A stretch of 64,000 bases of DNA, taken from a virus. A program made the position numbers and the translations under genes. The notes under the pieces are model-generated. The model was not told where the DNA came from, did no database searches, and saw nothing but the letters and a program-made list of their open reading frames with translations. The DNA lies in the IMG/VR virus record IMGVR_UViG_3300025127_006147, positions 96,001-160,000 of that record, one strand, 5' to 3'. Shown here piece after piece: positions 20,978-63,681 of the stretch. Each line of letters opens with the position of its first letter. The first letter of the stretch is position 1.

Positions 20978-21334
20978 TTAGAAGTCCATATTATCGAATG
21001 GTTCCATAAGATTACCACGATTCTTAAATCCTACACCACCCACATAAGTTTCCATGTTGTTCATTTTTCTTCTTTCGTAGTTTAGAACTGCTAAAGCTAA
21101 CTTCCTATCATATTCCTTATCATCTGTTTCAGGGACTACACCATCATAATAGATGGAACCTCTAAAACTTCTACCAGGACCACGAAAATCCATTATCTCA
21201 TTATAATCAGAATCAGACAATTCAAATTCAACATCATCTACAGGAAGTCTGTTATCCATTTCTTCATCTTGTTCGTTAATTACTTTGTTTAAAGCTTTCT
21301 TAATATCTCTTTCAGTAATTCTAATTTTACTCAT
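20978..21334 (-). CDS. Acidic hypothetical protein with an ITERDI...VINEQ leader
   Basis: Probable start ATG at 21334 (MSKIRITERDIKKALNKVINEQ), just downstream of the TATTTATA motif at 21349-21356 on the minus strand. Confidence 0.6.
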   Translation of the reverse strand: MSKIRITERDIKKALNKVINEQDEEMDNRLPVDDVEFELSDSDYNEIMDFRGPGRSFRGSIYYDGVVPETDDKEYDRKLALAVLNYERRKMNNMETYVGGVGFKNRGNLMEPFDNMDF

Positions 21335-21373
21335 GGTATTCTTTTTAATATAAATATAAACAAGGTTAAATAA

Positions 21374-21400
21374 AAAAAGGGAATCTTTCAATCCCCTTTT
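21374..21400 (-). terminator. Intrinsic terminator
   Basis: Minus-strand hairpin AAAAGGGGAT-TGAAAG-ATTCCC followed by a T run, downstream of the Cys-rich mini-ORF. Confidence 0.6.
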
Positions 21401-21417
21401 AATTAATTATTTAGTTT

Positions 21418-21480
21418 TTAACAATTGCAACAAGTACATTCACATTTGGTAGTACAGTTACATTCTTTACAATCACACAT
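21418..21480 (-). CDS. Metallothionein-like micro-protein (20 aa, 9 Cys)
   Basis: MCDCKECNCTTKCECTCCNC*; A-rich start context AAAAACTATT-ATG; missed by the ORF track. Confidence 0.65.
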   Translation of the reverse strand: MCDCKECNCTTKCECTCCNC

Positions 21481-21490
21481 AATAGTTTTT

Positions 21491-23800
21491 TTATTTACTA
21501 GCGTGATATCCAGCTAAAATTTCTTCACAGTCTTTTTTAGAAGAACATTTTTTAAAAATACCACCTTTTTTATTATTCATTATAACCCACTGGCCGTCTT
21601 TTTTTTTGATACATCCAGAACCTCCTTCAGATTCTGCACATCCTTTACCTTCTTTATTTTCCTTAAGAACTCTGTCTACGATTTTGTAAAGGTCAGCTTC
21701 TGTAAGTTTGATTACATTTTTATTAGATTTTTTAGAAATAGATTTTCTTCTAGGTTTTCTAGACTCAGATAATTCTTCTCTTTCGTCTTTTTCTAAATCT
21801 CCTACTAGTTTAAGTAATTCTGCTCTACTCATGTCTTTTACATTACCTCTAAATCCTCTGGAAAGGTCTTGAACAGGTGCGGAGTATTTTCCAGTTTCTG
21901 CACCTCCGAAAGGATTGTAAGCTTGTGAAGAAGTACCAAATTTTAATCCACCTTTACTGAAACCTCTTCTTCCGAAAGAAGGAGATGTATAAGAACCTCT
22001 AGCTCTCTCACTTCCTTTTTTACTTGTTGGAGCTTTTGTGGGAGTAGCACTCTTTCCAGAACTTTTACCAAATCCCTTAGGTATTAAACCACCGAAGTTA
22101 AATAAAACATATGCACCTTCAACACCAGATAGAGCAATAGTCTTAAATTTAAACGAACTAATTATACCTTCATCCATTTCATTTTCTTTAAATGCAGCTC
22201 TCATTCCCTTATCAAATGCTTTAGCGTCTGGACCTCCTTTAACTAAAGCTAATTGATATTCTCCAGAATTTACTAGTTCATACTCAAAGTCTACACCATC
22301 TATGGTAGCTTTTTCCACACTTCCAGGTTTTAAGTTGTAGGTAGACTTACCAACAGTAATATTTAAATCTGTACTAAAACCAGTTTCTTTGTTCATTTTA
22401 TGTGGACCTAATGATATACCTGGTTCATTAAGATTTGTATCTTGTGTCATAGTACCACCACCTTCACCGAATTCTGGTTTACCTTTTCCACCACCCATTT
22501 CTGTCGAAATCATGTCGTTAAATAGCATGTCAGGTGTAGTACCTGGATAATTACCATCTTTAGGTGCCCCTGCAGTCATAGTTAAAAATACAAATCTAGT
22601 AGTTCCTAATTCTTTGTTAGCTCCCATATTTACCTGTGAAACTTCGAATCCAGGATTCATCGCAGTTGCTACCTTCACATAAGTGGCAACATTATCAGAT
22701 GGTACTGCTAATAAACTAAATGGCCCAAAACTATATAGTGCCATTGGAAATCCTGCTAACTTATTACCTGCTGTGTATCCCTCTGGTTCTTGTCCATTAA
22801 GTTGAAGAGCAAGTTCACCATTTCTAAATGTTACATTCATAGGTGCAACCACTCCAGGAACAAGAGTTTTAGGTAAACCAGACTGTTTAGCAGAAACAGT
22901 CATTGTAGCACCTGGTGCAAATGCAGTGGTATTCGTAAATCCTTTAGCACTTTTCTTTCCTCCTCCTGGTGGTTCTTCTTCTCCACCTTTTTCTTTTTCT
23001 CCACCAGACTCTTCACCGCCTCCTTTTTCTCCACCAGACTCTTCACCGCCTCCTTTTTCTCCACCAGATTCTTCTCCGCCGCCTTCGCCGCCTCCTTCTT
23101 CTCCGCCGCCTTCGCCGCCTCCTTCACCTCCACCTTCTTTTTCTTGTTCGGTGAGTAATTTAACGTCTTCATACGACATTCCTTCTTCAAACATAATCAT
23201 TTGTTTGATTCGGTCTATTTGTTCTTGAATAGTAGTTTTCATAGTATTTTCATTTTCTTTATAAATATGTTTATATTCTTCTTTTACAGTATAAATATCA
23301 TTATTACTTGCAGTGGGTGCAGTGTAGTTGTCTAATTCAGGATTTCCTTTAGCTAATCCCACCAGATGACCAGCATTTTTTTGGTCTATATCTATATCTC
23401 CAAACACATCATAATTGTCACTATCGGTGTTGTTATTTTTAGTGTGGGACACTTTATTTTCTGGGTGAGTAACACCATGAATCTCAACATGGTCATCTCC
23501 TTTATGTTCATCGTCAGGATTTAAATAGTCTGGTTCAGGATGTAGTGGTCGTTTATTGGTTTCCTCATCGTTAAAATTATTACTATCAAACCAAGCAGTA
23601 CCTTCAAATGAAGGATTATCATTTTTTAATCTTGAAGGTCCCTTATCTATTCCTTCTTCTGGCCATCCCGAGGAAGGGTCCATTTCAGGAGTATTTGTTG
23701 GATGTATTCTATCTTTAGTGAAATCATTCTTTTTTACACCTTTTTTAATAGTCATTTTAGAATCATCTAGAGCCTCATTAAATCTATATGTAATTTTCAT
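21491..23800 (-). CDS. Large modular protein with many (L/I/V/F)xE sites and a Gly/Glu repeat (possible polyprotein or scaffold)
   Basis: RFNEA, TIQEQ, LLTEQ, LSES and IKLTEADLYKIVDRVLKE sites; GGEESGGEKG repeats; TATTTAT motif upstream (23821-23827). Confidence 0.55.
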   Translation of the reverse strand: MKITYRFNEALDDSKMTIKKGVKKNDFTKDRIHPTNTPEMDPSSGWPEEGIDKGPSRLKNDNPSFEGTAWFDSNNFNDEETNKRPLHPEPDYLNPDDEHKGDDHVEIHGVTHPENKVSHTKNNNTDSDNYDVFGDIDIDQKNAGHLVGLAKGNPELDNYTAPTASNNDIYTVKEEYKHIYKENENTMKTTIQEQIDRIKQMIMFEEGMSYEDVKLLTEQEKEGGGEGGGEGGGEEGGGEGGGEESGGEKGGGEESGGEKGGGEESGGEKEKGGEEEPPGGGKKSAKGFTNTTAFAPGATMTVSAKQSGLPKTLVPGVVAPMNVTFRNGELALQLNGQEPEGYTAGNKLAGFPMALYSFGPFSLLAVPSDNVATYVKVATAMNPGFEVSQVNMGANKELGTTRFVFLTMTAGAPKDGNYPGTTPDMLFNDMISTEMGGGKGKPEFGEGGGTMTQDTNLNEPGISLGPHKMNKETGFSTDLNITVGKSTYNLKPGSVEKATIDGVDFEYELVNSGEYQLALVKGGPDAKAFDKGMRAAFKENEMDEGIISSFKFKTIALSGVEGAYVLFNFGGLIPKGFGKSSGKSATPTKAPTSKKGSERARGSYTSPSFGRRGFSKGGLKFGTSSQAYNPFGGAETGKYSAPVQDLSRGFRGNVKDMSRAELLKLVGDLEKDEREELSESRKPRRKSISKKSNKNVIKLTEADLYKIVDRVLKENKEGKGCAESEGGSGCIKKKDGQWVIMNNKKGGIFKKCSSKKDCEEILAGYHASK
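22985..23135 (-). repeat. In-frame GC-rich tandem repeat encoding a Gly/Glu linker
   Basis: The 30-nt unit ccaccagactcttcaccgcctcctttttct is identical at 23001-23030 and 23031-23060, with degenerate copies after it. Confidence 0.85.
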
Positions 23801-23807
23801 CAGTTAT

Positions 23808-23839
23808 TTTGTTTTATTAAATAAATATTACTATATTTG
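23808..23839 (+). promoter_or_regulatory. Bacteroidetes-type promoter TTTG-N20-TATATTTG
   Basis: Exact consensus; TATTTATA also follows at 23850-23857. Confidence 0.7.
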
Positions 23840-24489: not shown

Positions 24490-25284
24490 ATGAAAAAAAC
24501 AGGACCCTTCATCAACCAAGAAGAAATTTCTCACTACTTAAAAGACGTGAGGAAAATAGACGTACTTACAGTTAATAGAGAAAAAATGTTAGCTAAAATA
24601 ATGTTGAACGACCCCACCCCAGAACAAAAAGAACAAATAGAAAAAGAATTAATGTTAGGTAATTTAAGATTTGTTATTAGTGTTGCAAGAGACTACCAAA
24701 ATCAAGGGGTAGATTTACCAGATTTAATAGCCGAAGGAAATCACGGACTTCTAAAGGCTATTAGAAATTTTGATTGGAGTAAAGGAAATAGATTTATTTC
24801 ATACGCGGTATGGTGGGTGAAACAATCAATATTTCAATGTCTTAATGAACACGCAAGAACCATTCGTCTCCCAGCTAATGTAGTACAAGAGGTACAAAAA
24901 GCTAAAAAAATGAGTGAAAAGGAAAATTATGTGATGGATAGTAAACTACAAAATTTGCCTTATACCACCAACTTAGATAGACCTATAAATGAAGAAGGTG
25001 ATACACTAGTTACAATAATAGAAAATGAAAATGCTCAAAACCCTGAAGATATATTTGATACTGACGAACAGTTAAAAGTAGAACTTAGAAAAATAATGAC
25101 AGTATTAGATGATAGGGAGATGAGAATTGTTGGAGACTATTTTGGTCTGACTGGTACACCTAGAACATTATCGGACATCGGTGATGATTTTAACCTAACT
25201 AAAGAAAGAGTTAGACAAATTAAAGAAAAAGCATTACGTAAATTACGTAATGAGAGTAGAGAACTTCTAGATTATATACTGTAA
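24490..25284 (+). CDS. RNA polymerase sigma factor, RpoD/SigA family (short Bacteroidetes type, no region 1.1)
   Basis: NLRFVISVA, DLIAEGN.GL.KA..FD, RFISYAVWW, RTIRLP, and region 4.2 TKERVRQIKEKALRKLR. Confidence 0.92.
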   Translation: MKKTGPFINQEEISHYLKDVRKIDVLTVNREKMLAKIMLNDPTPEQKEQIEKELMLGNLRFVISVARDYQNQGVDLPDLIAEGNHGLLKAIRNFDWSKGNRFISYAVWWVKQSIFQCLNEHARTIRLPANVVQEVQKAKKMSEKENYVMDSKLQNLPYTTNLDRPINEEGDTLVTIIENENAQNPEDIFDTDEQLKVELRKIMTVLDDREMRIVGDYFGLTGTPRTLSDIGDDFNLTKERVRQIKEKALRKLRNESRELLDYIL

Positions 25285-26394: not shown

Positions 26395-26983
26395 AAAAAA
26401 TTTATTTCATTATAAAAAACAATTTAATAAAACACAGATTATATTGTGTCATACTTCTAGACCTATATCATATTTTAATAATTCTTTAAAATATAGATTA
26501 GGAGGTGAATACAGTAGAATACCAACTTATACCATATCTAAAACTGGTAAAATAATAGAAAACTTTGATTCTAAATATTGTTCAGATTTTTTTGGGGTAG
26601 AAGAAATAGATAAATTTTCTATAACCATATGTTTAGAAAATCTGGGTTGGTTAAAATATAATACTTTAAATAATAAGTACGTCAACTGGATTGGTGATAT
26701 TTATAAAGGAGAAGTGTATCAAAAAAGATGGAGAGATAAGACTTTTTGGTCTAACTACCCTGATAAACAATTAAGAGCATGTGCAAAGTTAATAGTAAAA
26801 ATATGTTCTGAACATGATATACCTCTTGAAATGGTTGGACATAATGTAAAAATTGACGGAGTATTAAGTTTTTCAGGTGTAACAGCTAGAAGTAATTATA
26901 GTGAATACTGGACAGACTTGAGTCCTTCCTTTGATTTTAAAAAATTAAAAACATATATCGATGAAGAAGATGAACTACAATAA
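26372..26983 (+). CDS. N-acetylmuramoyl-L-alanine amidase-like protein (Amidase_2, divergent)
   Basis: IILCHT, YTISKTGKI, SITICLEN, Q..ACAKLI, VGH and DLSPSFD. Confidence 0.65.
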   Translation: METTITHKKNLFHYKKQFNKTQIILCHTSRPISYFNNSLKYRLGGEYSRIPTYTISKTGKIIENFDSKYCSDFFGVEEIDKFSITICLENLGWLKYNTLNNKYVNWIGDIYKGEVYQKRWRDKTFWSNYPDKQLRACAKLIVKICSEHDIPLEMVGHNVKIDGVLSFSGVTARSNYSEYWTDLSPSFDFKKLKTYIDEEDELQ

Positions 26984-27587
26984 AAAAATAGTAAACGGAA
27001 ATTTCGTAGACCAAAAATACGATGACATGAAAAGCATGTTAGATAGGGTGCGTCTTTTAAATGAACAAGTTGAGGGTGAAGTAGAAACAGCAACTCAGGA
27101 TGAAGATGAACCTAGGGAGAGACCTACAGTTGAAGAAGAATTAACAAAAGAGTATACTGTAAGTGGAGGTAAAATTATAGTACACGGTGCTTCAGAACAA
27201 GACTTAGTATTAACTGATGAAGAACAATCATCATTTCAAGAAACTATGGAACAATTTGCTGAAGAAGTATCTGATATGGCACAATTTCACCCCTTAAACA
27301 TTTACAAAAATAATGTAGAGTGGTCTGGTGACTTATTAAGATTTGATGTAAGGTTTTACTACTCTATAGCTGAGGTAGAAGGAACTTATATTGGGAACGC
27401 AAATATGATTAAAGTAGATAATAAATTTATGGAAGTATTAGGAAAGGTTAAAAATTTTTATAATACTTTCGAATCTAAATGGGCTAAAGTTTTAGCAGAC
27501 AGAAGAACAACAGAAGTAGAAAAAGAAGAAGGTTTGGGTGACGATGAACTTGCAGTCGATGTAGAAATGGATAGTGGAATAGAATAA
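26961..27587 (+). CDS. Acidic hypothetical protein with a leader ending RLLNEQ
   Basis: 208-aa ORF in the operon. Confidence 0.55.
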   Translation: MKKMNYNKKIVNGNFVDQKYDDMKSMLDRVRLLNEQVEGEVETATQDEDEPRERPTVEEELTKEYTVSGGKIIVHGASEQDLVLTDEEQSSFQETMEQFAEEVSDMAQFHPLNIYKNNVEWSGDLLRFDVRFYYSIAEVEGTYIGNANMIKVDNKFMEVLGKVKNFYNTFESKWAKVLADRRTTEVEKEEGLGDDELAVDVEMDSGIE

Positions 27588-28630: not shown

Positions 28631-29398
28631 ATGAATGCATTAGACCAACATGAAAAAAATATGAAAAGAATGATTAACAATGTTAGTCAAGAACTAGGAC
28701 CTAGAAAGGGAATTGAAGCCGTTAAGTCAAGAGACGAACTTATGAAAGTAGCTGAAATTGGTGAAGAGATTAACAAAGAGGAAGAAATGGATGAAGTGAC
28801 TAGTGCTGGTTCCGCTGGAGCTTTTGTAGCTCCTATGGGTTGGAATAATGATACTGGTATGAGTAAACCTCAAAACGAAGAAGAACTGGATGAGATGACA
28901 GGAAGTGCTTCAGCAGGTGCTTACTCCCAACCAGCTATATGGGCAAAAAATAGAAAAAATTGGAGAGCTGTTAGTGACCCCAACTTCCCTAAGTATGGGG
29001 GACCAGGAGCTAAATATGTTAGAGTAAAAGAAAAATGTAGAAAGTTCCCGTATTGTAATCAAGGAGATATAAACGCTTTAGAATTTTACGAAGATAAAAA
29101 TTTACAAGAAGCAATTAAAGTGGTTTCTAAAAAAACTAATAAGTCAGAAAATTATATAAAAAATATAATTCTACAAGAAATGGAAAGCATGTTTAAAAAA
29201 GACATGAAAAAATACCAGACAGAAAAAATGAAACCTTATAAAAAGAAAAAGAGTAAATACACCAAACAAGAAGTAGAAGAAATGATTAGAAGAGGTTTTT
29301 ACCACTCTCCTATCACATCATTGGTGGGTAACTTTAAAATGAATAAACCTATAGGTCAAATTTATTCTATGAAAGGTAATAAACCTAAGTACGAATAG
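28631..29398 (+). CDS. Hypothetical protein with a duplicated (M/L)DE-x-T-S(A/G)-SAGA motif
   Basis: EEEMDEVTSAGSAGAFVAP and EEELDEMTGSASAGAYSQP; KCRKFPYCNQG; LQEA and ILQE sites. Confidence 0.55.
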   Translation: MNALDQHEKNMKRMINNVSQELGPRKGIEAVKSRDELMKVAEIGEEINKEEEMDEVTSAGSAGAFVAPMGWNNDTGMSKPQNEEELDEMTGSASAGAYSQPAIWAKNRKNWRAVSDPNFPKYGGPGAKYVRVKEKCRKFPYCNQGDINALEFYEDKNLQEAIKVVSKKTNKSENYIKNIILQEMESMFKKDMKKYQTEKMKPYKKKKSKYTKQEVEEMIRRGFYHSPITSLVGNFKMNKPIGQIYSMKGNKPKYE

Positions 29399-32620: not shown

Positions 32621-33571
32621 ATGAAAAATTATTATGAAATTTTAGGTGTAAGTAAAGAGGCAACCGCGGCAGAAATAAAAAAAAGTTATCGTAAACTTTC
32701 TTTAAAATATCATCCAGATAAAAATCCAGAAGGCGAAGATAAATTCAAAGAAATTTCTGAAGCTTATACAATATTAGGAGACGAAGAAAAAAGAAAAAAA
32801 TATGATAATGGTGGAAATAGATTTGAAGACCTATTTTCTGGAGGTGGAAATCCTTTTGATATGTTTAACGATTTATTTGGGAAGGGTGGTTTTAATCAAC
32901 CCCCACGTACTAGAAGAGGTAAAGACATTAGTCTTAGTCTTAATATAACACTGGAAGAATCTTATTTCAGTAAAGAAAGGACAGTAAAATTTAATAGGGT
33001 AACAACTAACAACAAAATGTGTGGAACTTGTAAAGGTAGTGGGATGGTACAACAAATGGTACAATCAGGACCTTTTAGACAAATGTTAAATTCGGTATGT
33101 CCTAATTGTAATGGGAATGGTTTTGAAGGGGGTGGTTTTAGAAAAATAGAAGAAGTTAAATTTAAAATTCCTAGAGGTATTGATGATGGATTACTTATGA
33201 AATTAAGAGGAAAAGGTAATGCTGTTTGGGGAGGTATAGATGGAGATTTATTAATAAAAATTAATATATTACCTCATAGTAAATTTAAACGTGCTGCTGA
33301 ACAGTTACATTATACAGAAGATATAAATTTTGTTGACATATGTTTAGGTAAAGAAATTCTTATAGAACATTTTGACGGACCAATGAAAGTTGATATCCCA
33401 CCTAATTCAGATTTTAAAAAACCATTACGTGTAAAAGAAAAAGGTTTTTATGACCCATCTGGTTTTAAAGGTGATTTATATGTATTTTTAAATCCGATAA
33501 ACCCTGAAGATATAACAGATAAAGAAAAAGTTTTATTAGAAAAACTAAAAAAAGAAGAAAATTTTAAATAA
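32621..33571 (+). CDS. dnaJ: DnaJ-class chaperone with a shortened zinc finger
   Basis: [17 protein letters not shown] (HPD), G/F-rich region, only two CxxCxGxG motifs ([16 protein letters not shown]), and a DnaJ C-terminal domain. Confidence 0.9.
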
Positions 33572-33756
33572 TGGAGAAAAAAAAGTGTAAAGGTTGCAAA
33601 AACAAACCACTAACTGACCTTAGTAAAGAAAAAATAGAAGAAGAGGGTTTCTCCCCCCTTGTCAAAACGTTAATTTTTTTGTATACTGCTTTAGCAGTTT
33701 ATGGAAGTGTGAGTTTAGTCATAGACATAAAAGAATTAATTAAAACCTTATTTTAA
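33571..33756 (+). CDS. Small CxxC plus TM protein
   Basis: KCKGCK then a C-terminal hydrophobic helix; overlaps the neighbours' stop and start codons. Confidence 0.45.
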   Translation: MEKKKCKGCKNKPLTDLSKEKIEEEGFSPLVKTLIFLYTALAVYGSVSLVIDIKELIKTLF

Positions 33757-35570: not shown

Positions 35571-35635
35571 TAAACATATTATAGAAGTATTTATTACATA
35601 GAAGTGATATTTATAATTAAACAATAAATCTAGAA

Positions 35636-39566: not shown

Positions 39567-41252
39567 TTATCTATATTTAATTCTAAGTAACTCACCTCTA
39601 GTCCAAGGTTCGTAATTAGGACCTAAGGTATAAACAAACTGTCTACCTTTTCTATCCATTTTTACTATGCCAGAGTCGTTTATAACTGCAAAGAATTCAG
39701 AGTTGTGACCTGGAGTATAAGTTCTACCAATAGAATCATAAAATTCTTTTCTGGTTTTACCAGGGTTGTTCTTAACGAAGTCTACAAATAATTGAGTTAA
39801 TGAACCTTCTTTAGGTGGGTATTTAAAAGTTAAAGGTGTTCTACCTCTCATAGGTTCCCAAGTCTTACTATCTTTTGTAGTAAGGTCTTTAACTTCCGGT
39901 CTAGATAAAAGAAACCTTAAGTTTCGCAATAGGACTCCATTTAAGAAAGCTTTTTCTGGGAAACCTCTATAGTAGTTATTCTGATACCTATCATTATCTA
40001 AGAACCTCTCTTTGAATTCATCCCGAGGAGGCAAACCTAACTTTATTCCATCAGTTTCTCCATCAATTTCATAATAGCCAAGATTATTACTGGCAGCTAC
40101 AATATGTCCAGGAAGAAGTCTAAAATACCAACCTATATCTTCCGCTAAGTCGTTCTCTGCTGTGGGTTCTATATATCCATTAAAATCGGAAACAATAATT
40201 TCATATTCCGTGTCGTTAAACACCTCAACAGAAAATTTATATTTATTATCTCCGATAGGACTTACGTACCATTCATTACGACCAACCACTTCAAGTTCCC
40301 ATGGACCACTTTCCGTGTTAAATTTAATTTTCTCACCTTGTAATTTATCTGTGATTAAATTAACAAATTCATTAAGACTTTTGTATCTCTTAAAGTCTAA
40401 CACTTCCGAATAAGAATCTAATTCTTTTTTATATAAATCGTCAATTACTTGAATAGCCTTATCTGGTAACATAGAACTAACTATGGATGCTGTCCTACTA
40501 TCTAATAGATTATCTTGCATATCATACCACTGGTCATCAGGTGCCCTACCTAGTACTCTTCTATTTGTTCTATAATCAGTGCCTAATTTAGGTAATTCCT
40601 TATAAAGTGCTATTTTATAATCCTTACCAGATTGTTTTTTTATGACATAATATAACACACCCTCGTTATTATATTTATTAAAAAATGACATATCTTTTGA
40701 TGTTGTACACCATTTGGTACCTGCACCGTAATAACAAGAAGCACCATGACTTTTAGGTCTAATAATTACCCAGTTATCATCTTCATATACCTTATCAACC
40801 TCCGACTTAAGCATTTTCTCTTTATCTTTTCTAGTCATTATAGATTCTACTTCATCCATAAGTCTTTCTAATACCGCTAAGTCATCATAAGAGTCTATGT
40901 TTTTTGGAGCCTTTATCATCTTCTGATTAACATCCATAAATGGTAATTGTTCTATAAGTTCAGGTGTCATTCTAGGTGAGTTAATGTCGAACCTCATAGC
41001 TAGAGACGATATGTCTATAGGGCTTGTGGATTGTTCGTCAATGTACCTTTTAACCATCCACAAAAGATATTTCTGGTTATTTGAAGGGTCCGAATTAACA
41101 AAATGTTCTAAAACAGATTCTAAATTAGTTCCCACACCAATCCCAGCTGGATTACCTGGTTCTGCAACAGGCCAAGACCCAACAGCTTTTTCAAAATATT
41201 GTTGTGCGTCTTCTACTCTCCCTTCTAATAATATGTGTTTATTAAATCTCAT
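39567..41252 (-). CDS. WCT-domain protein with an LxE leader
   Basis: MRFNKHILLEG; RPKSHGASCYYGAGTKWCT; the C-terminal ~70 aa look like a winged helix (PGKTRKEFY...MDRKGRQFVYTLG). Confidence 0.6.
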   Translation of the reverse strand: MRFNKHILLEGRVEDAQQYFEKAVGSWPVAEPGNPAGIGVGTNLESVLEHFVNSDPSNNQKYLLWMVKRYIDEQSTSPIDISSLAMRFDINSPRMTPELIEQLPFMDVNQKMIKAPKNIDSYDDLAVLERLMDEVESIMTRKDKEKMLKSEVDKVYEDDNWVIIRPKSHGASCYYGAGTKWCTTSKDMSFFNKYNNEGVLYYVIKKQSGKDYKIALYKELPKLGTDYRTNRRVLGRAPDDQWYDMQDNLLDSRTASIVSSMLPDKAIQVIDDLYKKELDSYSEVLDFKRYKSLNEFVNLITDKLQGEKIKFNTESGPWELEVVGRNEWYVSPIGDNKYKFSVEVFNDTEYEIIVSDFNGYIEPTAENDLAEDIGWYFRLLPGHIVAASNNLGYYEIDGETDGIKLGLPPRDEFKERFLDNDRYQNNYYRGFPEKAFLNGVLLRNLRFLLSRPEVKDLTTKDSKTWEPMRGRTPLTFKYPPKEGSLTQLFVDFVKNNPGKTRKEFYDSIGRTYTPGHNSEFFAVINDSGIVKMDRKGRQFVYTLGPNYEPWTRGELLRIKYR

Positions 41253-42624
41253 TCTATCCTATTCTATAAATATAAAACCATTCACCATCATAGACTATTT
41301 CATTTTCTTCACCATCATAACCAGCAAGACCATTTCCTCTTCCATCAGAAGATATGACTTCTCTAACAAATTCATCTTCATCTATAAAATGTGTAATATC
41401 TAATTCGTACATTTGGATATATTCCATGGGGTCATTTCTAATCTCATCCAATTTGTATTCCACAGCTTGGTCTATAGCATCCTCAGTCCATTCATAACTG
41501 TCCTCGTCTTCTATAATATCTTGTTTTTGTTCTTCTAATGCGTCTATTTGGTCTTGGATGTATTCTTCGTCTGATTCTCTATCAACCTCGTCTAACTCTT
41601 CCAGATGTTCTCCTATTTGTTCATCTATTGCTTCTATTTGTTCTTTATAATATGCTATCATCACTCTATCATCCTCTTCATCTAAATAACTTTCAGGACT
41701 TTCTTCAACATCTTGTCTAATATAATCTTCTACATAGTCCGCAACCTCATCACCATTTACGTGGGATTCATAGAACCATGAATTAAAACCTTCATACCCG
41801 ATATCGTCAACTAAGTTTCTTACTTGTTCCTCAGCAGCTTCATCCGCTTCATCATCATCACCTACAGCATATTCAGCTCCATCGTACTCAAATATAGGCA
41901 TTTCACCATAGTGAGTAGTTCCTTCATACATAATATCATAAACTGTAGAAATATTTTCCCTTTCTTCTTCTAGTTCTTCCTCTAAATTATTTAAATCCAT
42001 CCCATAATCTTGAGCTCTTTCCCCATTAGGGTTTTCTATAACTTCAGGGTCATTTTCCATATCACTACGAAGGTCTCTAATTTGTTCCTCTAAGTACTCG
42101 ATTTCGTCACTGTTGTCCGACCACTCACCTTCATCTTTTAGGAATTCCATTAATGCGTTAGCTCTTATACCAACGGAGTCAGTATCTTCAGGATTCCACT
42201 CCTCATTTTCTCTTCTTAATTCTGCTTCAGCATTTAATCTAGCTATTCTTTCTCTTCTACGTTGAGCCCATTCATTTTCTCTCGCCTGTCTCTCCAGTTC
42301 CCTAGCTTTTACTTCTGCACCTATTTTATCTATTTCCTCTTTATATGTGTATTCGAAAAAACTTTCTATCGCACTCATTAAAGGATGTTCTAAAATATAA
42401 TCTATATTTGTTGTATCACTAATTAAATTATCAGGTGCGTCATAAAAACTTTTACCTCCCGAATATTTTCTATTTAAAGCTACTTTATAGTAGGGGTTAG
42501 AAGTAGGTAATGTTTTATCTAGTATGTAAAAAAGTTTACCTTCTTGATTATAATTTTTAAATTGATAATCACTATCTTTAGCTGCTGTACACCATTTGGT
42601 ACCCGCACCATAATAACAAGAAGC
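40704..42624. repeat. Pair of 39-nt near-identical segments in paralogous WCT genes
   Basis: 40704-40742 and 42586-42624 differ at 2 of 39 positions, both synonymous, and encode ASCYYGAGTKWCT. Confidence 0.8.
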
Positions 42625-43002
42625 GTCATGAGATTCTGGTACCACAACTTTAAAACGGTCATCCTCGTAAATAACTTCAGATTGTTCATGAGTCTTAATA
42701 ACTCTTTGTCGTTTTTTTAAATTATCTAAAGCATCATTAAGGTCAGTGTAAGAATTATAAGAGTATAAATCTTTTATCTTTAAGTTATTTCGTTTCCTAT
42801 CGAAAGCTTCTACCGCGTCTAATACCATTTCTAAATAAATGACATTTTGTACAATAGAGTTCATATAATCTCTAGCTATCCACTCCAAATATTTTTGATT
42901 ATTTGCTATAGCACCACTACCAGTTACCATCTGGTCCCAGACATCTAAAGGTACGTTGTACTTTTCTTTTACTCTTGAAATTCTATTTTCTACTAGTAAC
43001 AC
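41254..43002 (-). CDS. WCT-domain protein with a highly acidic C-terminal half
   Basis: GTG start (M)LLVEN; PESHDASCYYGAGTKWCT; D/E-rich C-terminus ending HFIDEDEFVREVISSDG...FYIYRIG. Confidence 0.6.
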   Translation of the reverse strand: MLLVENRISRVKEKYNVPLDVWDQMVTGSGAIANNQKYLEWIARDYMNSIVQNVIYLEMVLDAVEAFDRKRNNLKIKDLYSYNSYTDLNDALDNLKKRQRVIKTHEQSEVIYEDDRFKVVVPESHDASCYYGAGTKWCTAAKDSDYQFKNYNQEGKLFYILDKTLPTSNPYYKVALNRKYSGGKSFYDAPDNLISDTTNIDYILEHPLMSAIESFFEYTYKEEIDKIGAEVKARELERQARENEWAQRRRERIARLNAEAELRRENEEWNPEDTDSVGIRANALMEFLKDEGEWSDNSDEIEYLEEQIRDLRSDMENDPEVIENPNGERAQDYGMDLNNLEEELEEERENISTVYDIMYEGTTHYGEMPIFEYDGAEYAVGDDDEADEAAEEQVRNLVDDIGYEGFNSWFYESHVNGDEVADYVEDYIRQDVEESPESYLDEEDDRVMIAYYKEQIEAIDEQIGEHLEELDEVDRESDEEYIQDQIDALEEQKQDIIEDEDSYEWTEDAIDQAVEYKLDEIRNDPMEYIQMYELDITHFIDEDEFVREVISSDGRGNGLAGYDGEENEIVYDGEWFYIYRIG

Positions 43003-44039: not shown

Positions 44040-45149
44040 ATGGGTATGAAATTACTTCATACAATACAAACCCTAGTAGAACAGGAAGGACAACCTTTTT
44101 GGGTTAAACAAGCACTCGATAGTTGGGATTGGGATGACATTCACGACACTCTTAAACTATTTGGTGGTGACCTACATGAATATTACAAAGCTTTAGAGAG
44201 TAGAGGTTTCGGTGAAGACTTTTTAAATCAAATAACTCATTGGGAAGAATCTCCAAATTACTATATCACACAAGCTTTAGGTGGTAGAGACGCTTATAGG
44301 AGGGGTCTAATAGATGAAGACTTACTAGTAAAGTATGTAGTAGATAATATAGTAGAGAATGAGATTAGGGATTTAAAAAAATACGAAACTGGTAAGATAT
44401 ACCTTACTTTAGACATGTATAGTAAACCTGATTTTTTTGAGAAAGATTCATATGACCGTATAAGTTGTGAGGAAACCGCAAGATTAGTATTTGAAGATAC
44501 TTTGTGGGAAAATTGGGAGAATACGGATACCTGGACACCTAACCTAGATGGGTTACTTGAAAATTTATCACCACAAAATTACAAAAAATTAATATCTAAC
44601 ATCTTAAATAATCACCAAACGTTAACTTGTTTCAGAGAAGAGTTTGAGTCTTGGGTAGAACAAGACAATATTGGTGAAGATACTTTTTATGTAGATGTTT
44701 CTAGAATGAATTGGTTTTTAAATGACCCAGATAGATATAATTTCGAAGTATTACTTGGTTGTGCGGAAGAGTTAGAGGATTATGTAGATGAAATGAAACG
44801 AAGTTATCAAAGAGCTTATAATGATGAATTATTGTCGATTTACTACAATCAATACCATAAGGATTTAGAAAGGTTACTAGGTAAACCTGTAGGTAAAGAT
44901 AAAACCTATGACTACAGAGGAAAAGAAAAAATTGAACTTGAGGCAGATGTTTATGAAGTTACAGATTTGGTAAATAAAATATTAATTGAGGCCGCTTTAA
45001 GTGGAGAAGAACTACAATACTCGGAGTTTGGTGAAATATATAGAGATTTAAATAGTGGGGGTGGATTATGTCCAGGTCATTTTGATGACGTTTATGACGA
45101 TGAAAAACTTTGGGAACAGTACAATGAACGATTTAGTGAGTATTTATAG
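44040..45149 (+). CDS. Acidic hypothetical protein with an LxE leader
   Basis: MKLLHTIQTLVEQE; D/E/Y/W-rich; TATTTAT immediately upstream. Confidence 0.6.
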   Translation: MGMKLLHTIQTLVEQEGQPFWVKQALDSWDWDDIHDTLKLFGGDLHEYYKALESRGFGEDFLNQITHWEESPNYYITQALGGRDAYRRGLIDEDLLVKYVVDNIVENEIRDLKKYETGKIYLTLDMYSKPDFFEKDSYDRISCEETARLVFEDTLWENWENTDTWTPNLDGLLENLSPQNYKKLISNILNNHQTLTCFREEFESWVEQDNIGEDTFYVDVSRMNWFLNDPDRYNFEVLLGCAEELEDYVDEMKRSYQRAYNDELLSIYYNQYHKDLERLLGKPVGKDKTYDYRGKEKIELEADVYEVTDLVNKILIEAALSGEELQYSEFGEIYRDLNSGGGLCPGHFDDVYDDEKLWEQYNERFSEYL

Positions 45150-45162: not shown

Positions 45163-45999
45163 ATGGAACTCAAAAAGATTTATTTAGAGAGTGAGGAGTA
45201 TTATCATGACATAGTCCCTAAAAAGACAATATACTTACATCACACAGCTGGTAGTCACAGACCTGATTGGACTGTTGCTAACTGGGAAAGAGACAAGACC
45301 AAAAGTGGTGGAGTAAGACACATCGCTACTGCTTATGTTATCGGTGGTAAATCAACCAGAGACGGTAATACTAAATGGGATGGTACTGTCATAGAATGTC
45401 ATCCACCAGAAAAGTGGGCACATCATCTGGGAATCAAAGCAAGAAACAATAGAACACTAAATAAAGAAAGTATTGGTTTAGAGATATGTAACTATGGTCC
45501 TATTAAAGTTAAAGATGGGGAGTATTTCAACTACGTTAATAGTAGGGTACCTAAAGAAGATGTTATTGATTTAGGATTCACCTTTAAGGGTTACAGACAC
45601 TACCATGCTTATACAGACGCACAAATAGAATCTACAAGACAACTTATACATTACCTAAGTGATAAATTTGATATTGATATTGCTAAAGGAATGAAAAGAA
45701 TCATCAACAAATCTTTAAAGATGCCAGAAGATTTAGATTTACTAGGAAAACAAAAATGGTTAAACATTCAAGGATATCTAGGAGCTAACGGTAGGGTATT
45801 AGCGGAAGATGGTGTAGATGGAAGAAATACACAATACGCTGTAGATTCTTATCTTCATGACAAAAAAGGAGATGCTTTTGCATTGAATAAACAAGCTTTA
45901 GTTGGAGCGGAAGGAGTATGGACACATACTAATGTAAGAAAAGATAAATTTGATTTATCCCCACAACCTAAGTTAATTGAAATGTTAAGTGAATTATAA
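45163..45999 (+). CDS. N-acetylmuramoyl-L-alanine amidase with an inserted peptidoglycan-binding motif
   Basis: YLHHTAG, WAHHLG, SIGLEICN, YTDAQI, WTHTNVRKDKFD; insertion LAEDGVDGRNTQYAV. Confidence 0.85.
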   Translation: MELKKIYLESEEYYHDIVPKKTIYLHHTAGSHRPDWTVANWERDKTKSGGVRHIATAYVIGGKSTRDGNTKWDGTVIECHPPEKWAHHLGIKARNNRTLNKESIGLEICNYGPIKVKDGEYFNYVNSRVPKEDVIDLGFTFKGYRHYHAYTDAQIESTRQLIHYLSDKFDIDIAKGMKRIINKSLKMPEDLDLLGKQKWLNIQGYLGANGRVLAEDGVDGRNTQYAVDSYLHDKKGDAFALNKQALVGAEGVWTHTNVRKDKFDLSPQPKLIEMLSEL

Positions 46000-46009
46000 A
46001 CCTTAAAGG

Positions 46010-46038: not shown

Positions 46039-46055
46039 TTATAAAAATATAAGTT

Positions 46056-46432: not shown

Positions 46433-46452
46433 GGCCATCCAAACAATTTTAA

Positions 46453-46674: not shown

Positions 46675-46752
46675 TGTTGTATTTTATTGGTTAAGTGTAA
46701 AAATTTTTTTAATTTTGTATAAATATTTATATTAACCTGACAATAACATTAT

Positions 46753-46941
46753 ATGCTAATAGTAAAAGTACAAAAAAACAACATAGATAGAGCCATCAAA
46801 CAGATGAGGAGAAAAGTAATTAATACACAACTCCTAAAAGAGTGTAGAAAAAGAAAACACTTTACCAAACCATCAATCATCCGAAGAGATGAAATTCAAA
46901 AAGCAAGTTACGTACAAAAAAAGTTTGGAGACGAAGATTAA
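46753..46941 (+). CDS. rpsU: Ribosomal protein bS21 (phage-encoded)
   Basis: MLIVKV...NIDRAIKQMRRKV...LLKECRKRKHFTKPSIIRR; TATTTATA at 46724-46731. Confidence 0.88.
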   Translation: MLIVKVQKNNIDRAIKQMRRKVINTQLLKECRKRKHFTKPSIIRRDEIQKASYVQKKFGDED

Positions 46942-49900
46942 GATTCAAACATGGTAGGACTTTGTACATAAGTTACAAAATCCTCAAATGATTTAACATA
47001 CCTTTCTTGATTCATACGACTGTCGTTTCCTACGTTCTCCCTTACCTCCACGTCAAAAACAATAGTTTCGTTCTCAGTATCTATTTTTCTAATACCCACT
47101 TTCCTATCTGGTTTATTGGGGTTACCATACTTTTTACTAAAGTTATATATACCCCAGTCATGAGATTCAAATTTTTCTTTCGTTAAATAATCATTAACCT
47201 TTTTTATAAAATCTTTTCTTCTTTCTATATCCACGTCATCTATTTTTTCTAAAAAGCTATCAATTTCAGATTCAACATTTTCTTCTGTTCCTTCTGACCA
47301 CTCATATGTGTCATAATACACATCCTGAGGTTCAGTAGGGATGTAGTTGATTTGTTTATCTTGACTAAAGAGTGTATCTAAAGTACCACCCTCTGAAGGT
47401 AAGTTTTCACTAACAAGATAAAGTAAAGGTTCCCAACCTATATGTATTCTTACACTGTCTCCTCCTATATGGTCATATTCTAAAAATATTTCATTTTTGA
47501 AGAATTGTTTCATTTCTTCTACTCTACTTTCACCAACACCTTTACCTACTTCATATAATATATCTGGAGCAGCGTTGTCCCATTCTGTAGGAAAGTACTT
47601 TTCAAAAAAGTCATTTATTTCCCCATCTTCAAATTGATGACACGGTCTATCTATAGGTTTGTCGGTACCCTCTATTAGATTCATTAACTCGGTTACTTTT
47701 CTCAATTGACTATCATTAAACCAACAAGACATATAATTTAATTCGTCATCATCTATCTCCTCATAATAATCACTATAACCATAATCATGAGCTAAATTAT
47801 AATAATATTCACCATCACCAATTACTAAAACGTTTTGTATCCAGTCATCTTTTTTTAAATAAACGTTAATTCCGTCAGGAACAATCTCTATTTCATCTTC
47901 ACCCCCTCGAGTGTAATAACTTTCCGTATAAGGTTCAAACTCACCATAATATTCTTCTAAATCTGCAGGGTCACCATTATTATTAATTATATTGTATATA
48001 AGTTCACCCAATTTACTATGTTCTTTACCGTCCAATAAAACATCTTCATCAAATTCCATATTGTATTTAATTCTTTCAGGTAAACTATATTTTACATGAA
48101 AGAACTTTTGTAATTCTTTTTCTTGACTTAGGAGTTCTTTAAGATTTTCCACCATACCATTAGTATTATACATATACTTCTGACTCTTAGGTTCACGTAA
48201 AAAAGGAATTTTACCTCTATCTATAAGTAAAAGTTGGTTAGGGCCACCTATTCTAACAGGGGATGAATCTTTTTTAAATTCAATAATATAAGGAGTTCCC
48301 ATACTTGCTTGACTCTGTAAAATTGTATTTAAGGACTCACAATATTTAGTGTTTGGTATATTACAAATACCATCTTTGTCAAGTGGTACATATATCCTGT
48401 AATCTTCGTTATCCAGGACCACCTTTTTACGTATGTTTACTTTATTATCTGTTTGTTCATATAAATCTTCACCTCTTCTAAAACCAGGTCTTAATATCCA
48501 CTCGTCCGAACCTTCACCACCTACCATTGTGATTTCTGGACCGTCACCATCTATTGGCATTATGTTATAAATTCTCTTGTCATAATTCGGTAAACCCGAT
48601 TTTGGCACTTTGGGATGATACCGAACACCAAAATTCCATCCAGTAACTACGTATGGTTTGAATAACTCCATGTGTTTAGATGAACCAAGAGATTTGTGGA
48701 TTATTATAATTTCATCACCCACATCTAATGTCATGTTTTTTTTTAAATCTTTAGATTCTTGTAAAGACTCTTTACCATACCTTTCTGTAATATCTTTTAA
48801 AAGTATATCATAAAGTTGTTCTCCTTCTTCATTACTTAACCCATGTCTTAGTTTTGTATTCTCTACAGAACCTCTAATGACTTCCTCGAAGGACCTACCT
48901 TGTTTTATTCTTCTTGCGTTAAGACCAGAAGTCTGTGCATCGATTTCATGGTCTTGAGTATAATATGGTAAACCTTTTAAATCTTCTTCAGTTTCTCCAG
49001 GGTGAGTACCCATAACTTCTTGTTCCGCATGTCTAATTTCATGCCTAATATATTCAGTTAAGTAATCTTCTATATGTGTATAACTTTCAGGTTCCATAAG
49101 TGGATTGATAATTAAACCAATCTCTATTGTATCATCACCAGCGTAATAAGCATCTATATTAAATTCATCTTCTATCTCTTCATCTCTACCAAGAGTTAGT
49201 TCTAAGGTGAATGAATAATTTTCTATTGCATAAAGCATTTCATCTGGTCTTAGGTCTTCAGGTAAAAAGTAAGTCTTAGTTTCTGGTTCAGTAACTGTGT
49301 CCTTAACAACTTTCATAACGTCATCAACCATCATTAAAGTTTCATTATAAAAATCAGTTTGTTCGTTTAAGTTATCTCTACCTCTATCTAATGATTTTAA
49401 TTTACCACCTAATTTCTTTATTATATGATTAAACACATTTTTAAATCCTATTATGCCCACACCTACAAGAACACTTTTTAAGTAACCTGTGGGTGAACCA
49501 GGATGTATGAGACCCTGATTTATTAAGAAAAGTAAACCATCTAATATAGGGAAAGCTAAAAATGTAAAAGCTACTACATCAGCTAATGAGTTAGCTGTAT
49601 AACCTAAGGATTCACCTATTTTAATCGCTATATCTTCAACCGATTTTAAGAAATCTAAAACTACAGACAGTCCTTTAGTAAGTCCTTTTTCTCTTATAAT
49701 ATCCATAAGTTTTTGAACTTTATCTTTATGTCTCCCCACCAAAATCCACATAGCTGTTATGTACAGTAAGATTACATCTTGTTCAGTTAAAGTAGGCATT
49801 GTTCCCGACATTAACTCTTTAACCGCGGGTAACATAGCTGTAATACCAGTTCCGAAAGTAAAGGTACCATCTATAACATCACCCAAATCCATTAAGGTTT

Positions 49901-49982
49901 TTTTAACTACAGAATCTTTTTCCTCTATCTTTTCTAAAATTAATCCTTTTTGATTAACACTATTGATTAAACTGATATTCAT
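46938..49982 (-). CDS. Multi-module protein: helical module, HExxH zincin, SH3-like, degenerate WCT and acidic modules
   Basis: Modules are separated by GLILEK, NLNEQ, SLQES and DLYEQ; YIRHEIRHAEQE plus YYTQDHEIDAQ. Confidence 0.6.
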   Translation of the reverse strand: MNISLINSVNQKGLILEKIEEKDSVVKKTLMDLGDVIDGTFTFGTGITAMLPAVKELMSGTMPTLTEQDVILLYITAMWILVGRHKDKVQKLMDIIREKGLTKGLSVVLDFLKSVEDIAIKIGESLGYTANSLADVVAFTFLAFPILDGLLFLINQGLIHPGSPTGYLKSVLVGVGIIGFKNVFNHIIKKLGGKLKSLDRGRDNLNEQTDFYNETLMMVDDVMKVVKDTVTEPETKTYFLPEDLRPDEMLYAIENYSFTLELTLGRDEEIEDEFNIDAYYAGDDTIEIGLIINPLMEPESYTHIEDYLTEYIRHEIRHAEQEVMGTHPGETEEDLKGLPYYTQDHEIDAQTSGLNARRIKQGRSFEEVIRGSVENTKLRHGLSNEEGEQLYDILLKDITERYGKESLQESKDLKKNMTLDVGDEIIIIHKSLGSSKHMELFKPYVVTGWNFGVRYHPKVPKSGLPNYDKRIYNIMPIDGDGPEITMVGGEGSDEWILRPGFRRGEDLYEQTDNKVNIRKKVVLDNEDYRIYVPLDKDGICNIPNTKYCESLNTILQSQASMGTPYIIEFKKDSSPVRIGGPNQLLLIDRGKIPFLREPKSQKYMYNTNGMVENLKELLSQEKELQKFFHVKYSLPERIKYNMEFDEDVLLDGKEHSKLGELIYNIINNNGDPADLEEYYGEFEPYTESYYTRGGEDEIEIVPDGINVYLKKDDWIQNVLVIGDGEYYYNLAHDYGYSDYYEEIDDDELNYMSCWFNDSQLRKVTELMNLIEGTDKPIDRPCHQFEDGEINDFFEKYFPTEWDNAAPDILYEVGKGVGESRVEEMKQFFKNEIFLEYDHIGGDSVRIHIGWEPLLYLVSENLPSEGGTLDTLFSQDKQINYIPTEPQDVYYDTYEWSEGTEENVESEIDSFLEKIDDVDIERRKDFIKKVNDYLTKEKFESHDWGIYNFSKKYGNPNKPDRKVGIRKIDTENETIVFDVEVRENVGNDSRMNQERYVKSFEDFVTYVQSPTMFES

Positions 49983-50022
49983 TTAATTTCTTTTACTAAT
50001 AAATATAATCTTAAAACTATTT

Positions 50023-52276: not shown

Positions 52277-52292
52277 ATAATATAAATATTAA

Positions 52293-52910
52293 TTAGTTAT
52301 CTACACAACCACCATCTCTACAAAATAAATCTGCGGTTTCGTTTTTTCTTTCAGGATGACCCCAATCTAAATCATTTCTAATCCAAGATTGAGCACTTTT
52401 AAATTTACCAGTTTCAATTTTAGATATCCCTTGAGTCCTTATAAATGCAGAACAACCTAAGTTGTATGCAATATCTGACATCGCTATATACATACTAGTA
52501 GTTAATTTTCTTTCATTATGGTCTTTATCAGTCGCACGATTTTGCCATCTTTTAATACAGTTAGCCGCTTCTTGGATATCAGGTTTACTTAATTTTTCTG
52601 CCTCACTAACACTCATCGTTTTGTTCATGTAAGTTTTAATAACAGCAGGGTCAGTGGTTCCCCACCCTATAGTTAAAGTACCATATGTAGTTCCTCCAGT
52701 ATACTTAGGAGGCATTTTCATCTTTTTGTGTTTATTATAAACCCACTTTACTTTATCATCATAAACATAAGGTATGTGGTTACCTTTAACGTCCCCTTCA
52801 TTTCTTCTTAAATAATCAAATATTGGTTGTCCCGCAGACTTTTTATTCCAGTCATAAAAATTAACGGACTCCTGTTCGATTAATAAAGTAAGTTGATTTA
52901 TAAGTTTCAT
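52293..52910 (-). CDS. Lysozyme (GH24/T4L-like) with an LxE leader
   Basis: LRRNEG...YVYDD...TLTIGWGT...DIAYNLG; MKLINQLTLLIEQE; no signal peptide or SAR domain. Confidence 0.75.
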   Translation of the reverse strand: MKLINQLTLLIEQESVNFYDWNKKSAGQPIFDYLRRNEGDVKGNHIPYVYDDKVKWVYNKHKKMKMPPKYTGGTTYGTLTIGWGTTDPAVIKTYMNKTMSVSEAEKLSKPDIQEAANCIKRWQNRATDKDHNERKLTTSMYIAMSDIAYNLGCSAFIRTQGISKIETGKFKSAQSWIRNDLDWGHPERKNETADLFCRDGGCVDN

Positions 52911-52940
52911 ACCTATAAATACTATAATAAGTAATAATGA

Positions 52941-62612: not shown

Positions 62613-62618
62613 ATTATT

Positions 62619-62648
62619 AAACCCTCAGTGACGACTGGGGGTTTTTTT
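62619..62648 (+). terminator. Intrinsic terminator
   Basis: AAACCCTCAGT-GACG-ACTGGGGG followed by T7. Confidence 0.8.
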
Positions 62649-62649
62649 A

Positions 62650-62681
62650 TTTGGTATTTTAAAATATTTTTCTTATCTTCG
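62650..62681 (+). promoter_or_regulatory. Bacteroidetes-type promoter variant TTTG-N20-TATCTTCG
   Basis: One mismatch to TAnnTTTG, upstream of the CCA enzyme gene. Confidence 0.55.
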
Positions 62682-62701
62682 TATTATTAAAATTAGAAAT
62701 T

Positions 62702-63436
62702 ATGCCAAAGATATTTGAAGTAGGAGGTTGTGTTAGAGATGAACTATTAGGGGTTCACACTAATGATATTGATTTTACTTTTGTATTAGATGATATTAAT
62801 CAGACAGTAGATGAAGGGTGGGAACAAATGTTAAATCACTTAAAATCCACAGGATTTAAAATATTTTTGGAGACAAAAGATTGTTTTACTGTGAGAGCTA
62901 AGTTCCCAAAAGGACATCAACACGAAGGTCTAGTTGCAGATTTTGTAATGGCAAGAAAAGAAGTTGGTGTAATTCCTGGTACTAGAAAACCAGTTCTTAG
63001 GTTGGGTACTTTAGAAGATGACTTAACTCGAAGAGATTTTACTCTTAACGCTTTAGCAAAAGATTTAGATGGTAACATTATAGATTTATTTGACGGACAA
63101 CTTCATTTGATTTTAAATTTGTTGATTACTCCCTTGGACCCAGTTACCACCTTTTTAGATGACCCTCTTCGTATGATTCGTGCACTCAGATTTCACATCA
63201 CCAGAGGTTTCCAAATTCACGAAACTGTATGGGAAGCAATTTTTACTCCAGGTCTTATAGATAAATTGGAAGAAGTTGTTTCACAAGAACGAATTCAAGG
63301 GGAAGTTATTAAAATGATGAAACATGACACAGTAAGAACTTTACGATTGTTTTCTAAGATTGATAAAGCAGAACCTAGATTATTAGAAATTATGTTTGGT
63401 GGTAACATGTGGCTACTACCAACAACTAAAAAATAA
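62702..63436 (+). CDS. CCA-adding tRNA nucleotidyltransferase / poly(A) polymerase family protein (short, no HD domain)
   Basis: VGGCVRD..LG...DIDF, VMARKE, DDLTRRDFTLNALA and DDPLRMIRALRF. Confidence 0.88.
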   Translation: MPKIFEVGGCVRDELLGVHTNDIDFTFVLDDINQTVDEGWEQMLNHLKSTGFKIFLETKDCFTVRAKFPKGHQHEGLVADFVMARKEVGVIPGTRKPVLRLGTLEDDLTRRDFTLNALAKDLDGNIIDLFDGQLHLILNLLITPLDPVTTFLDDPLRMIRALRFHITRGFQIHETVWEAIFTPGLIDKLEEVVSQERIQGEVIKMMKHDTVRTLRLFSKIDKAEPRLLEIMFGGNMWLLPTTKK

Positions 63437-63450
63437 AAATGAGTAGATTT

Positions 63451-63681
63451 TTATCTACTTTTGAGATAGTCAGTTATTAACTGTACCATTCCAGCATCAA
63501 AATATCTAGAATCAAACTCTGCTACTATTTCACTTGAGTCATCAGTTTCATGATATATCATATAACGAGGGTAATCAAAAGCGTCAGTGTATTCTACAAC
63601 TAGTTCACCATCTTTATAGTCGGTTCTACTAATTTCATCAATACTAAACTCTCTTAATAGTTTTATAATTTGATTTCTCAT
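63451..63681 (-). CDS. Small acidic protein with an LxE leader
   Basis: MRNQIIKLLREFSIDE; TATTTAT upstream (63698-63704, minus strand). Confidence 0.55.
   Translation of the reverse strand: MRNQIIKLLREFSIDEISRTDYKDGELVVEYTDAFDYPRYMIYHETDDSSEIVAEFDSRYFDAGMVQLITDYLKSR

Follow-up and report, generated by a model that had tools for sequence, protein, structure and literature searches.

Portable N-terminal leaders ending in a T4-type prohead-protease motif as candidate capsid-targeting signals in a distant T4-like jumbo phage and its relatives

The internal proteins of T-even phage heads are diverse and have only an N-terminal leader in common (PMC9026906, PMC3012670). The first 10 residues of the T4 internal protein IPIII, its capsid-targeting sequence (CTS), are enough for packaging, and processing needs leader positions 8 and 10 and is blocked by Asp at the last position, P1 (PMC9026906, PMC3012670). 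In phiKZ, 201phi2-1 and SPN3US, a diverged gp21-like protease (gp175/gp245) cleaves many of the proteins inside the head after a Glu, and the propeptides of these jumbo phages carry redundant sites (PMC9026906, PMC10052503). The subject of this work is a 64,000-nucleotide stretch of viral DNA, called the window below, which covers positions 96001-160000 of a 194,481-bp IMG/VR virus contig (IMGVR_UViG_3300025127_006147; ~61% complete, ~31% GC), and a group of its genes, the products of which open with a short N-terminal leader ending in (L/I)-x-E, with Glu at P1. The explanation favored here, considered fairly probable, is a T4-type gp21 maturation in which leader-tagged cargo is co-expressed with the head genes, packed, clipped and injected. 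An initial annotation of the window had proposed a portable leader ending in a prohead-protease motif. This proposal is partly supported, by the leader classes, their swapping, the junctions, the protease of the relatives and the shared promoter; it fails for the broad form of the motif, which is not enriched, and for the gene starting at 23800 (-).

The leaders share with the CTS of IPI, IPII and IPIII a short L/I-x-E ending on unrelated proteins, ahead of folded domains, as well as a gp21-family protease within the lineage and apparent co-expression with the head genes. In contrast to T4, several leader classes of 5-22 residues are present, often with two sites, and the predicted cargo comprises many more proteins, large enzymes among them. 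The motif here also joins modules inside polyprotein-like genes. The T4 sequences compared were Alt, gp21-24, gp67 and gp68, and the likeness to the IPI-III leaders rests on their descriptions. The T4 propeptides cleaved by gp21 resemble the classes described here, namely Alt (I-T-E↓ after six residues), gp24 (L-L-R-E↓), gp21 (L-L-I-E↓) and gp22 (MLK-E↓), where the arrow marks the position after the Glu. The likeness to Alt, gp24, gp67, gp68, gp22 and gp21 is one of short motifs only, and the mature proteins showed no homology. The proteases of phiKZ, 201phi2-1 and SPN3US favor a small residue at P3 (S/A/G-x-E or A-x-E), whereas P3 here is Leu or Ile as in T4, and the capsid protein and protease of the relatives are T4-type. 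The system is probably an enlarged form of the known T4 combination of capsid targeting and gp21 processing.

The contig codes for B-family DNA polymerase, helicase, primase, SbcC, gp32-like and UvsX-like proteins, and also for a sheath-like N-terminus and baseplate-like genes. This replication set, together with the sheath- and baseplate-like genes, identifies the source as a distant T4-like (jumbo) myovirus. A blastn search of the window against isolated phages gave zero matches; with the capsid protein of a relative as the query, the closest isolates, ~41% identical, are a Microcystis phage, Flavobacterium phages and Rhodothermus RM378. The genome studied here is denoted G000, and its relatives G001, G002, G003 and G005 were reached via the DNA polymerase. 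The polymerase of G001 (246 kb) is 80% identical to that of G000, and G002 (308 kb) is complete, with terminal repeats present.

Portability of the leaders is most visible in G002, in which ~50 proteins open with one of a few leader classes ending in hydrophobic-L/I-x-E. Around 20 of these genes start with MK-(I/L/V)-(I/V)-I-T-E↓S, and four further classes are present. The same leader is found on unrelated proteins, with a clearer signal in G002 than in G000, and the leaders lie ahead of the canonical domain starts in the kinase, DeoC, HAD and lysozyme proteins. Such shared N-termini could also reflect the common descent of multigene families, in which the leader is the conserved first helix of a fold and not a separable tag. 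Several G002 class-A proteins are similar beyond the Glu as well, and the LRR family has a conserved stretch directly after the leader. However, once the first 30 residues are cut off, the 142 leader-bearing proteins of three genomes fall into 101 body clusters, the leaders precede folds as unrelated as GH24, DHH, HAD, P-loop kinase and aldolase, and a single lysozyme body is found with three leader classes, depending on the phage. Common descent is accordingly rated as highly improbable, and a separable leader is preferred. Within one leader class the synonymous codons differ, and the Ser after the Glu comes from both of its codon families. An RNA-level or AT-rich start-region cause of the leaders was considered and ruled out on this codon variation and on the preference for Glu over Asp. 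Outside the window, at L003:5276-8332 (genome positions 45276-48332), a zeta/AAA_33-type kinase, a DeoC aldolase, an unassigned 293-aa protein and a HAD phosphatase are encoded between the sheath and tube genes, and all four carry hydrophobic-x-E leaders.

An example of such a leader is found on the lysozyme of the window (coordinates of all features are given in Table 1), a GH24 member by its match to PF00959 (E = 9e-11, 42.7 bits against a cut-off of 22.3, residues 76-175). Its Glu12 is invariant in 11 homologues of 29-91% identity, and among the 23 invariant columns it is the only one within the first 37 residues. In the AlphaFold (AF2) model of the protein, the leader forms a separate low-confidence helix, unpacked against the body. 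The Amidase_2 peptidoglycan hydrolase is the probable true endolysin and, with the promoter but no leader, forms a contrast to the leader-tagged lysozyme. The second family is that of the 118-aa protein, the leader of which ends in L-A-E↓D in G001. In 25 database homologues, its body always comes after hydrophobic-x-E↓(Q/E) and an acidic spacer, and upstream of the body stands either the leader alone or the leader with an extra module. In the LRR-containing protein, the I-x-E at residues 13-16 is kept in G001 and in G002 (31% identity for the latter) and, at residues 13-17, in the full-length members among the 120 homologues listed; few lack the N-terminal segment. The LRR matches themselves are weak, and the family does not discriminate between explanations because its entire N-terminus is conserved.

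Homology between leaders and internal junctions was found for three gene pairs and for the 118-aa family. A fused 965-aa G001 protein has an internal Y-L-V-E↓A junction, to which the leader of the 561-aa protein aligns. The modular 1014-aa protein has internal junctions at 205 (LNE↓Q), 407 (LQE↓S) and 507 (LYE↓Q); its residues 205-209, around the first of them, align with the N-terminal leader of a 735-aa G001 protein, and the module 411-510 is an insert flanked by the other two. The support for this gene comes mainly from these internal junctions. The DHH-type phosphoesterase (DxD at 30, DHH at 94; a weak PF01368 match of 20 bits against a cut-off of 28.1) keeps its leader in G001 and G002. 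Its fused C-terminal Gly-rich module comes after L-L-E↓T; the same module is a separate leader-bearing gene in G001, and the G002 DHH protein stops at the same junction. Fusion and fission at L/I-x-E sites are expected if the sites are cut.

Of the eleven genes listed in the initial annotation, seven or eight are supported by the overall count and nine in the gene-by-gene verdict, namely 21334-, 26961+, 35636+, 41252-, 43002-, 44046+, 49982-, 52276- and 52910-. The 582-aa protein has a G001 orthologue with an ATG start and M-L-L-T-E↓D, and its own start is comparable to T4 gp68 (MLLIPE↓) and gp22 (MLKE↓). The site of the 208-aa protein lies inside an operon, as claimed; G001 and G002 retain the L-x-E-Q next to a variable acidic flank, and the arrangement is like that of T4 gp67, with L-I-E↓G followed by an acidic tail. 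For the tenth gene, 63681-, there is resemblance only: its 76-aa product has no orthologue in G001 or G002, and the leader is similar to the G002 class K-I-L-R-E↓E and to T4 gp24 L-L-R-E↓S. The eleventh, 23800-, is not supported; its proposed leader (F-N-E↓A) is not found in the G001 orthologue, which has no N-terminal Glu motif, and the 769-aa product matches neither Pfam nor PHROG.

The open reading frames of the initial annotation and their N-termini are as it described, and the TATTTAT that it placed near the start of ten of the genes is present in all ten, 11-28 nt away. The total number of TATTTAT words in the window is at chance level (53 seen, 53.9 expected from shuffles). On the coding strand, the word stands upstream of 47/187 genes where 3.8 are expected, a ~12-fold enrichment, and ATATTTAT and TATTTATA are the top-ranked 8-mers upstream of genes. 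Its distance to the start codon is -11/-12 or -20 to -29, and an A-rich stretch comes after it. Two relatives show an identical logo, and there the word lies ahead of the genes for the protease and the scaffold-like protein and of others in the head module, as well as of the portal-like gene of G002. In G000 it sits upstream of the sheath, tube and baseplate genes, and also of trxA. From this distribution, TATTTAT(A) reads as a promoter of structural (late) genes. At 44040 the word overlaps the proposed ATG, and together with the G001 orthologue this led to a revision of the start to 44046. With the revised start, the motif stands at -11, the spacing also seen for the lysozyme; the G001 orthologue (33% identity) has an L-V-E↓D leader and an equally close TATTTAT. 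For the 369-aa protein, no related loci were found.

Comparison with the T4 late promoter, TATAAATA located ~10 nt upstream of late transcription starts, shows both likeness and difference. Alike is the single AT-rich octamer near the starts of structural genes, head genes included. The enriched coding-strand word is (A)TATTTAT(A) and not TATAAATA, and many copies stand here only 11-12 nt before the ATG. TATTTAT(A) may be regarded as a functional analogue only. Copies beginning 11-12 nt before the ATG are seen in 13 genes of the genome, and the window holds 12 such sites (e.g., 52915-52921, 52282-52288 and 44035-44041). If TATTTAT is a -10-like element, these copies would give leaderless or nearly leaderless mRNAs. 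The window also codes for a sigma-70 family factor (76% identity in G001, 60% in G002), a possible reader of some class of phage promoter.

An unbiased scan of the proteome bears on the ending of the leaders. L-x-E-Q tops all gapped tetrapeptides (41 against 12.5 expected, p = 1.4e-10), and LNEQ is seen 11 times against 0.9 expected in the scan of all tetrapeptides. The excess is distributed over 25 proteins, and after removal of a repetitive 2007-aa ORF it is still 35 against 12.1. The related [LI]-x-E-Q is concentrated N-terminally, with 16 occurrences in the first 45 residues against 4.1 in shuffles. For hydrophobic-[LI]-x-E-[QSDEN] within the first 25 residues, G002 has 53 against 10.6 in shuffles (z = 15), G001 13 against 6.5, and G000 8 against 5. 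When Asp takes the place of the Glu, no excess is seen in G000, G001 or G002. A regular expression derived post hoc from the same data, to describe one of the leader classes, matched 6 times against 0.03 in shuffles and is for that reason not counted as a test. A DNA-level motif behind L-x-E-Q was considered and ruled out, since the Leu codons vary as they do genome-wide, which places the constraint on the peptide. Glu is encoded only by GAA at these sites because GAG is generally avoided before C. Over all G000 genes, GAG makes up 1.7% of Glu codons when the next base is C and 13-32% when it is A, G or T, and the Glu-Gln dipeptides use GAA in 177/177 cases; this may be the avoidance of a GAGC-containing site.

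Several results weigh against leader-tagged cargo, and some of them concern the broad (L/I/V/F)-x-E motif by which the initial annotation had recognized the leaders. Within the first 20 residues this motif occurs 76 times, and composition-matched shuffles give 74.4, so that LxE in the broad definition is no more frequent than its composition predicts, an outcome that the initial annotation had itself named as refuting. Of the promoter-preceded genes 40% have the motif, and of the rest 33% (p = 0.38). The replication and metabolic genes had been said to lack such leaders; this contrast fails because primase and SbcC carry the motif and trxA carries the promoter. A cyclophilin-like protein has it too; this protein and primase are examples of obvious false positives. 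Its N-terminal excess in G000 is weak (z = 0.2-2.6), and the association of promoter and leader is modest (odds ratios of 1.6-2.8). Between G000 and G001 orthologues, an N-terminal [LI]-x-E is kept in 52% of cases and an internal one in 51%, a null result from an uninformative test. To these are added the unconserved leader of 23800-, the part of the leader signal that is paralogy, because some families are conserved past the Glu, and the position of many G002 leader genes in tandem small-gene arrays without their own promoter, an early-gene-like layout. Finally, searches of the ~61% complete G000 contig for the Peptidase_S77 (gp21), gp23 and gp20 families gave no matches.

Such numbers are what would be seen if most of the listed cases were chance, as may be imagined for a genome of 31% GC, rich in L, I, K and E, in which a third of the proteins have the motif near the start and the promoter is common. 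The orthologue comparison and the broad motif agree with this view. It is opposed by L-x-E-Q as the top pattern of the proteome, by the z of 15 in G002, by a Glu that stays invariant while the leaders are swapped and by the alignments of leaders with junctions. Chance is already contradicted for a core subset of the genes, and as an account of most cases it is very unlikely.

The initial annotation had named a gp21-like protease elsewhere in the genome as a check. None was found on the contig, and one is present in four relatives, including the syntenic G001. In G001, G002, G003 and G005, a Peptidase_S77 gene (E ~1e-24) adjoins a gp23-like capsid gene (E ~1e-65). In an alignment with 5JBL, a structure of T4 gp21, the G001 protease is seen to keep the His- and Ser-containing motifs ELNHP and SSRG. 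By gene order, the G000 contig breaks off ~4 kb short of the capsid gene, and synteny places the head module just past its left end. The sites in the head proteins of the two lineages are alike: the capsid-protein propeptide ends in L-I-N-E↓A in G001 and in F-L-T-E↓A in T4 gp23, and the protease starts with I-L-I-E↓Y in G001 and L-L-I-E↓T in T4 (PMC9026906). The acidic scaffold-like protein of G001 has eight L/I-N-E sites. As a separate observation, a stretch at 29279-29383 (+), within the gene 28631-29398, weakly matches Pfam Gp23 near the N-terminal end of the model (E = 0.008; a G004 homologue gives 3e-4) and reaches just E = 0.036 in a pairwise comparison with the G001 capsid protein. This match is probably not meaningful.

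The portability of the leaders is shown, and this leaves room for a role other than capsid loading. The leaders could dock proteins to the tail, the baseplate or a replication compartment, or act as an inhibitory propeptide or a shared interaction helix, with L/I-x-E being structural or the site of another protease. The early-like arrays of G002 agree with such a role, as do the kinase, DeoC and HAD among the tagged proteins, which are cytoplasm-type enzymes. Against it, the ending matches experimentally known T4 gp21 sites and the homology-anchored sites of the capsid protein, protease and scaffold of the relatives, and the promoter is common to the head genes. Glu is favored and Asp is not, as for gp21 (PMC9026906). 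A different role is rated as unlikely. Because the leaders end in a T4-type head-protease motif and the relatives encode the protease, the cargo is probably capsid-loaded and clipped.

In the proposed mechanism, the head would mature through a gp21-type (Peptidase_S77) prohead protease of a distant T4 relative, which would cut after the Glu of hydrophobic-(L/I)-x-E; the next residue is here often Q, S, D, E or N. The cargo genes would be transcribed from the TATTTAT(A) promoter of the head genes, and each product would begin with a helical N-terminal leader, 5-22 residues long, with the cleavage motif at its end. These leaders are most likely CTS-like, attaching the protein to the prohead's scaffolding core before their removal. 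The mature GH24 lysozyme, DHH phosphoesterase, HExxH, LRR and other proteins would remain inside the head and reach the cell together with the DNA. What the sequences show is the motif statistics, the leader classes and their swapping, the homology of leaders with junctions, the protease of the relatives and the promoter in common; cleavage, capsid loading and injection are inferred. As the motif joins modules within large proteins, the fused and split gene forms would give the same mature products.

A broader and more tentative proposal, plausible though held with less than even confidence, is that widespread marine jumbo T4-like phages load dozens of leader-tagged proteins, and that the junctions serve as universal connectors for free fusion, splitting and leader swapping, which would amount to a plug-and-play injected proteome. 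The lysozyme, the DHH phosphoesterase, the HExxH protease and the nucleotide-salvage cassette may be candidate cargo of this kind.

Table 1. Features of the window discussed in the text, with leaders, sites and nearby TATTTAT words (positions counted from the first nucleotide of the window; nt, nucleotide positions)
Feature	Coordinates	Strand	Leader, site or domain	TATTTAT
118-aa protein	20978..21334	-	21-residue double-site leader I-N-E↓Q, nt 21272-21334, then acidic spacer	21350-21356
769-aa protein	21491..23800	-	proposed leader unsupported	23821-23827
Sigma-70 family factor (regions 2, 4)	24490..25284	+	phrog_351 E = 1e-51; Sigma70_r2, Sigma70_r4	
208-aa acidic protein in operon	26961..27587	+	site L-L-N-E↓Q, residues 32-36, nt 27054-27065	
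LRR-containing protein, 454 aa	35636..37000	+	15-residue leader I-L-E↓Q, nt 35636-35680	35608-35614
561-aa protein	39567..41252	-	10-residue leader L-L-E↓G, nt 41223-41252	41266-41272
582-aa protein, GTG start at 43002 (confirmed)	41254..43002	-	5-residue leader L-L-V-E↓N	43018-43024
367-aa protein, revised start	44046..45149	+	12-residue leader L-V-E↓Q	44035-44041
Amidase_2 peptidoglycan hydrolase	45163..45999	+	PF01510 E = 5e-12; no N-terminal [LI]-x-E	promoter present
1014-aa modular protein	46938..49982	-	leader L-I-L-E↓K; HExxH at 314	49999-50005
DHH-type phosphoesterase, 637 aa	50363..52276	-	7-residue leader I-K-E↓S	52282-52288
GH24 lysozyme, 205 aa	52293..52910	-	12-residue leader L-I-E↓Q, nt 52875-52910	52915-52921
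76-aa protein	63451..63681	-	11-residue leader L-L-R-E↓F	63698-63704

Further genes were observed beside those of the main subject. A protein matching DruA, of the Druantia defense system, is encoded at 33756-34925 (+), with a Pfam E = 3e-25 and 75% identity in G001, and a full-length DnaJ with J, Cys-rich and C-terminal domains lies at 32621-33571 (+). In the loci L056-L085, a SHAEG-type peptide recurs strongly in G001 (HAEG 20 times, 0.3 expected), and PTPT/TxTP repeats are very numerous in G002 (T-x-T-P 264 times against 20). The proteins bearing these repeats look like repeat-rich surface proteins.

If the proposed system is true, the capsid cargo of environmental T4-like phages would greatly exceed the small set of T4 internal proteins, both in size and in enzyme content. 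The combination of a leader with the L/I-x-E rule would then predict the orphan phage genes whose products reach the host at infection, and would give a handle on the first-minute takeover and counter-defense functions of uncultured marine phages. It would also explain the fusion and splitting of genes at fixed junctions in these phages, and the leaders could be natural packaging tags for engineering.

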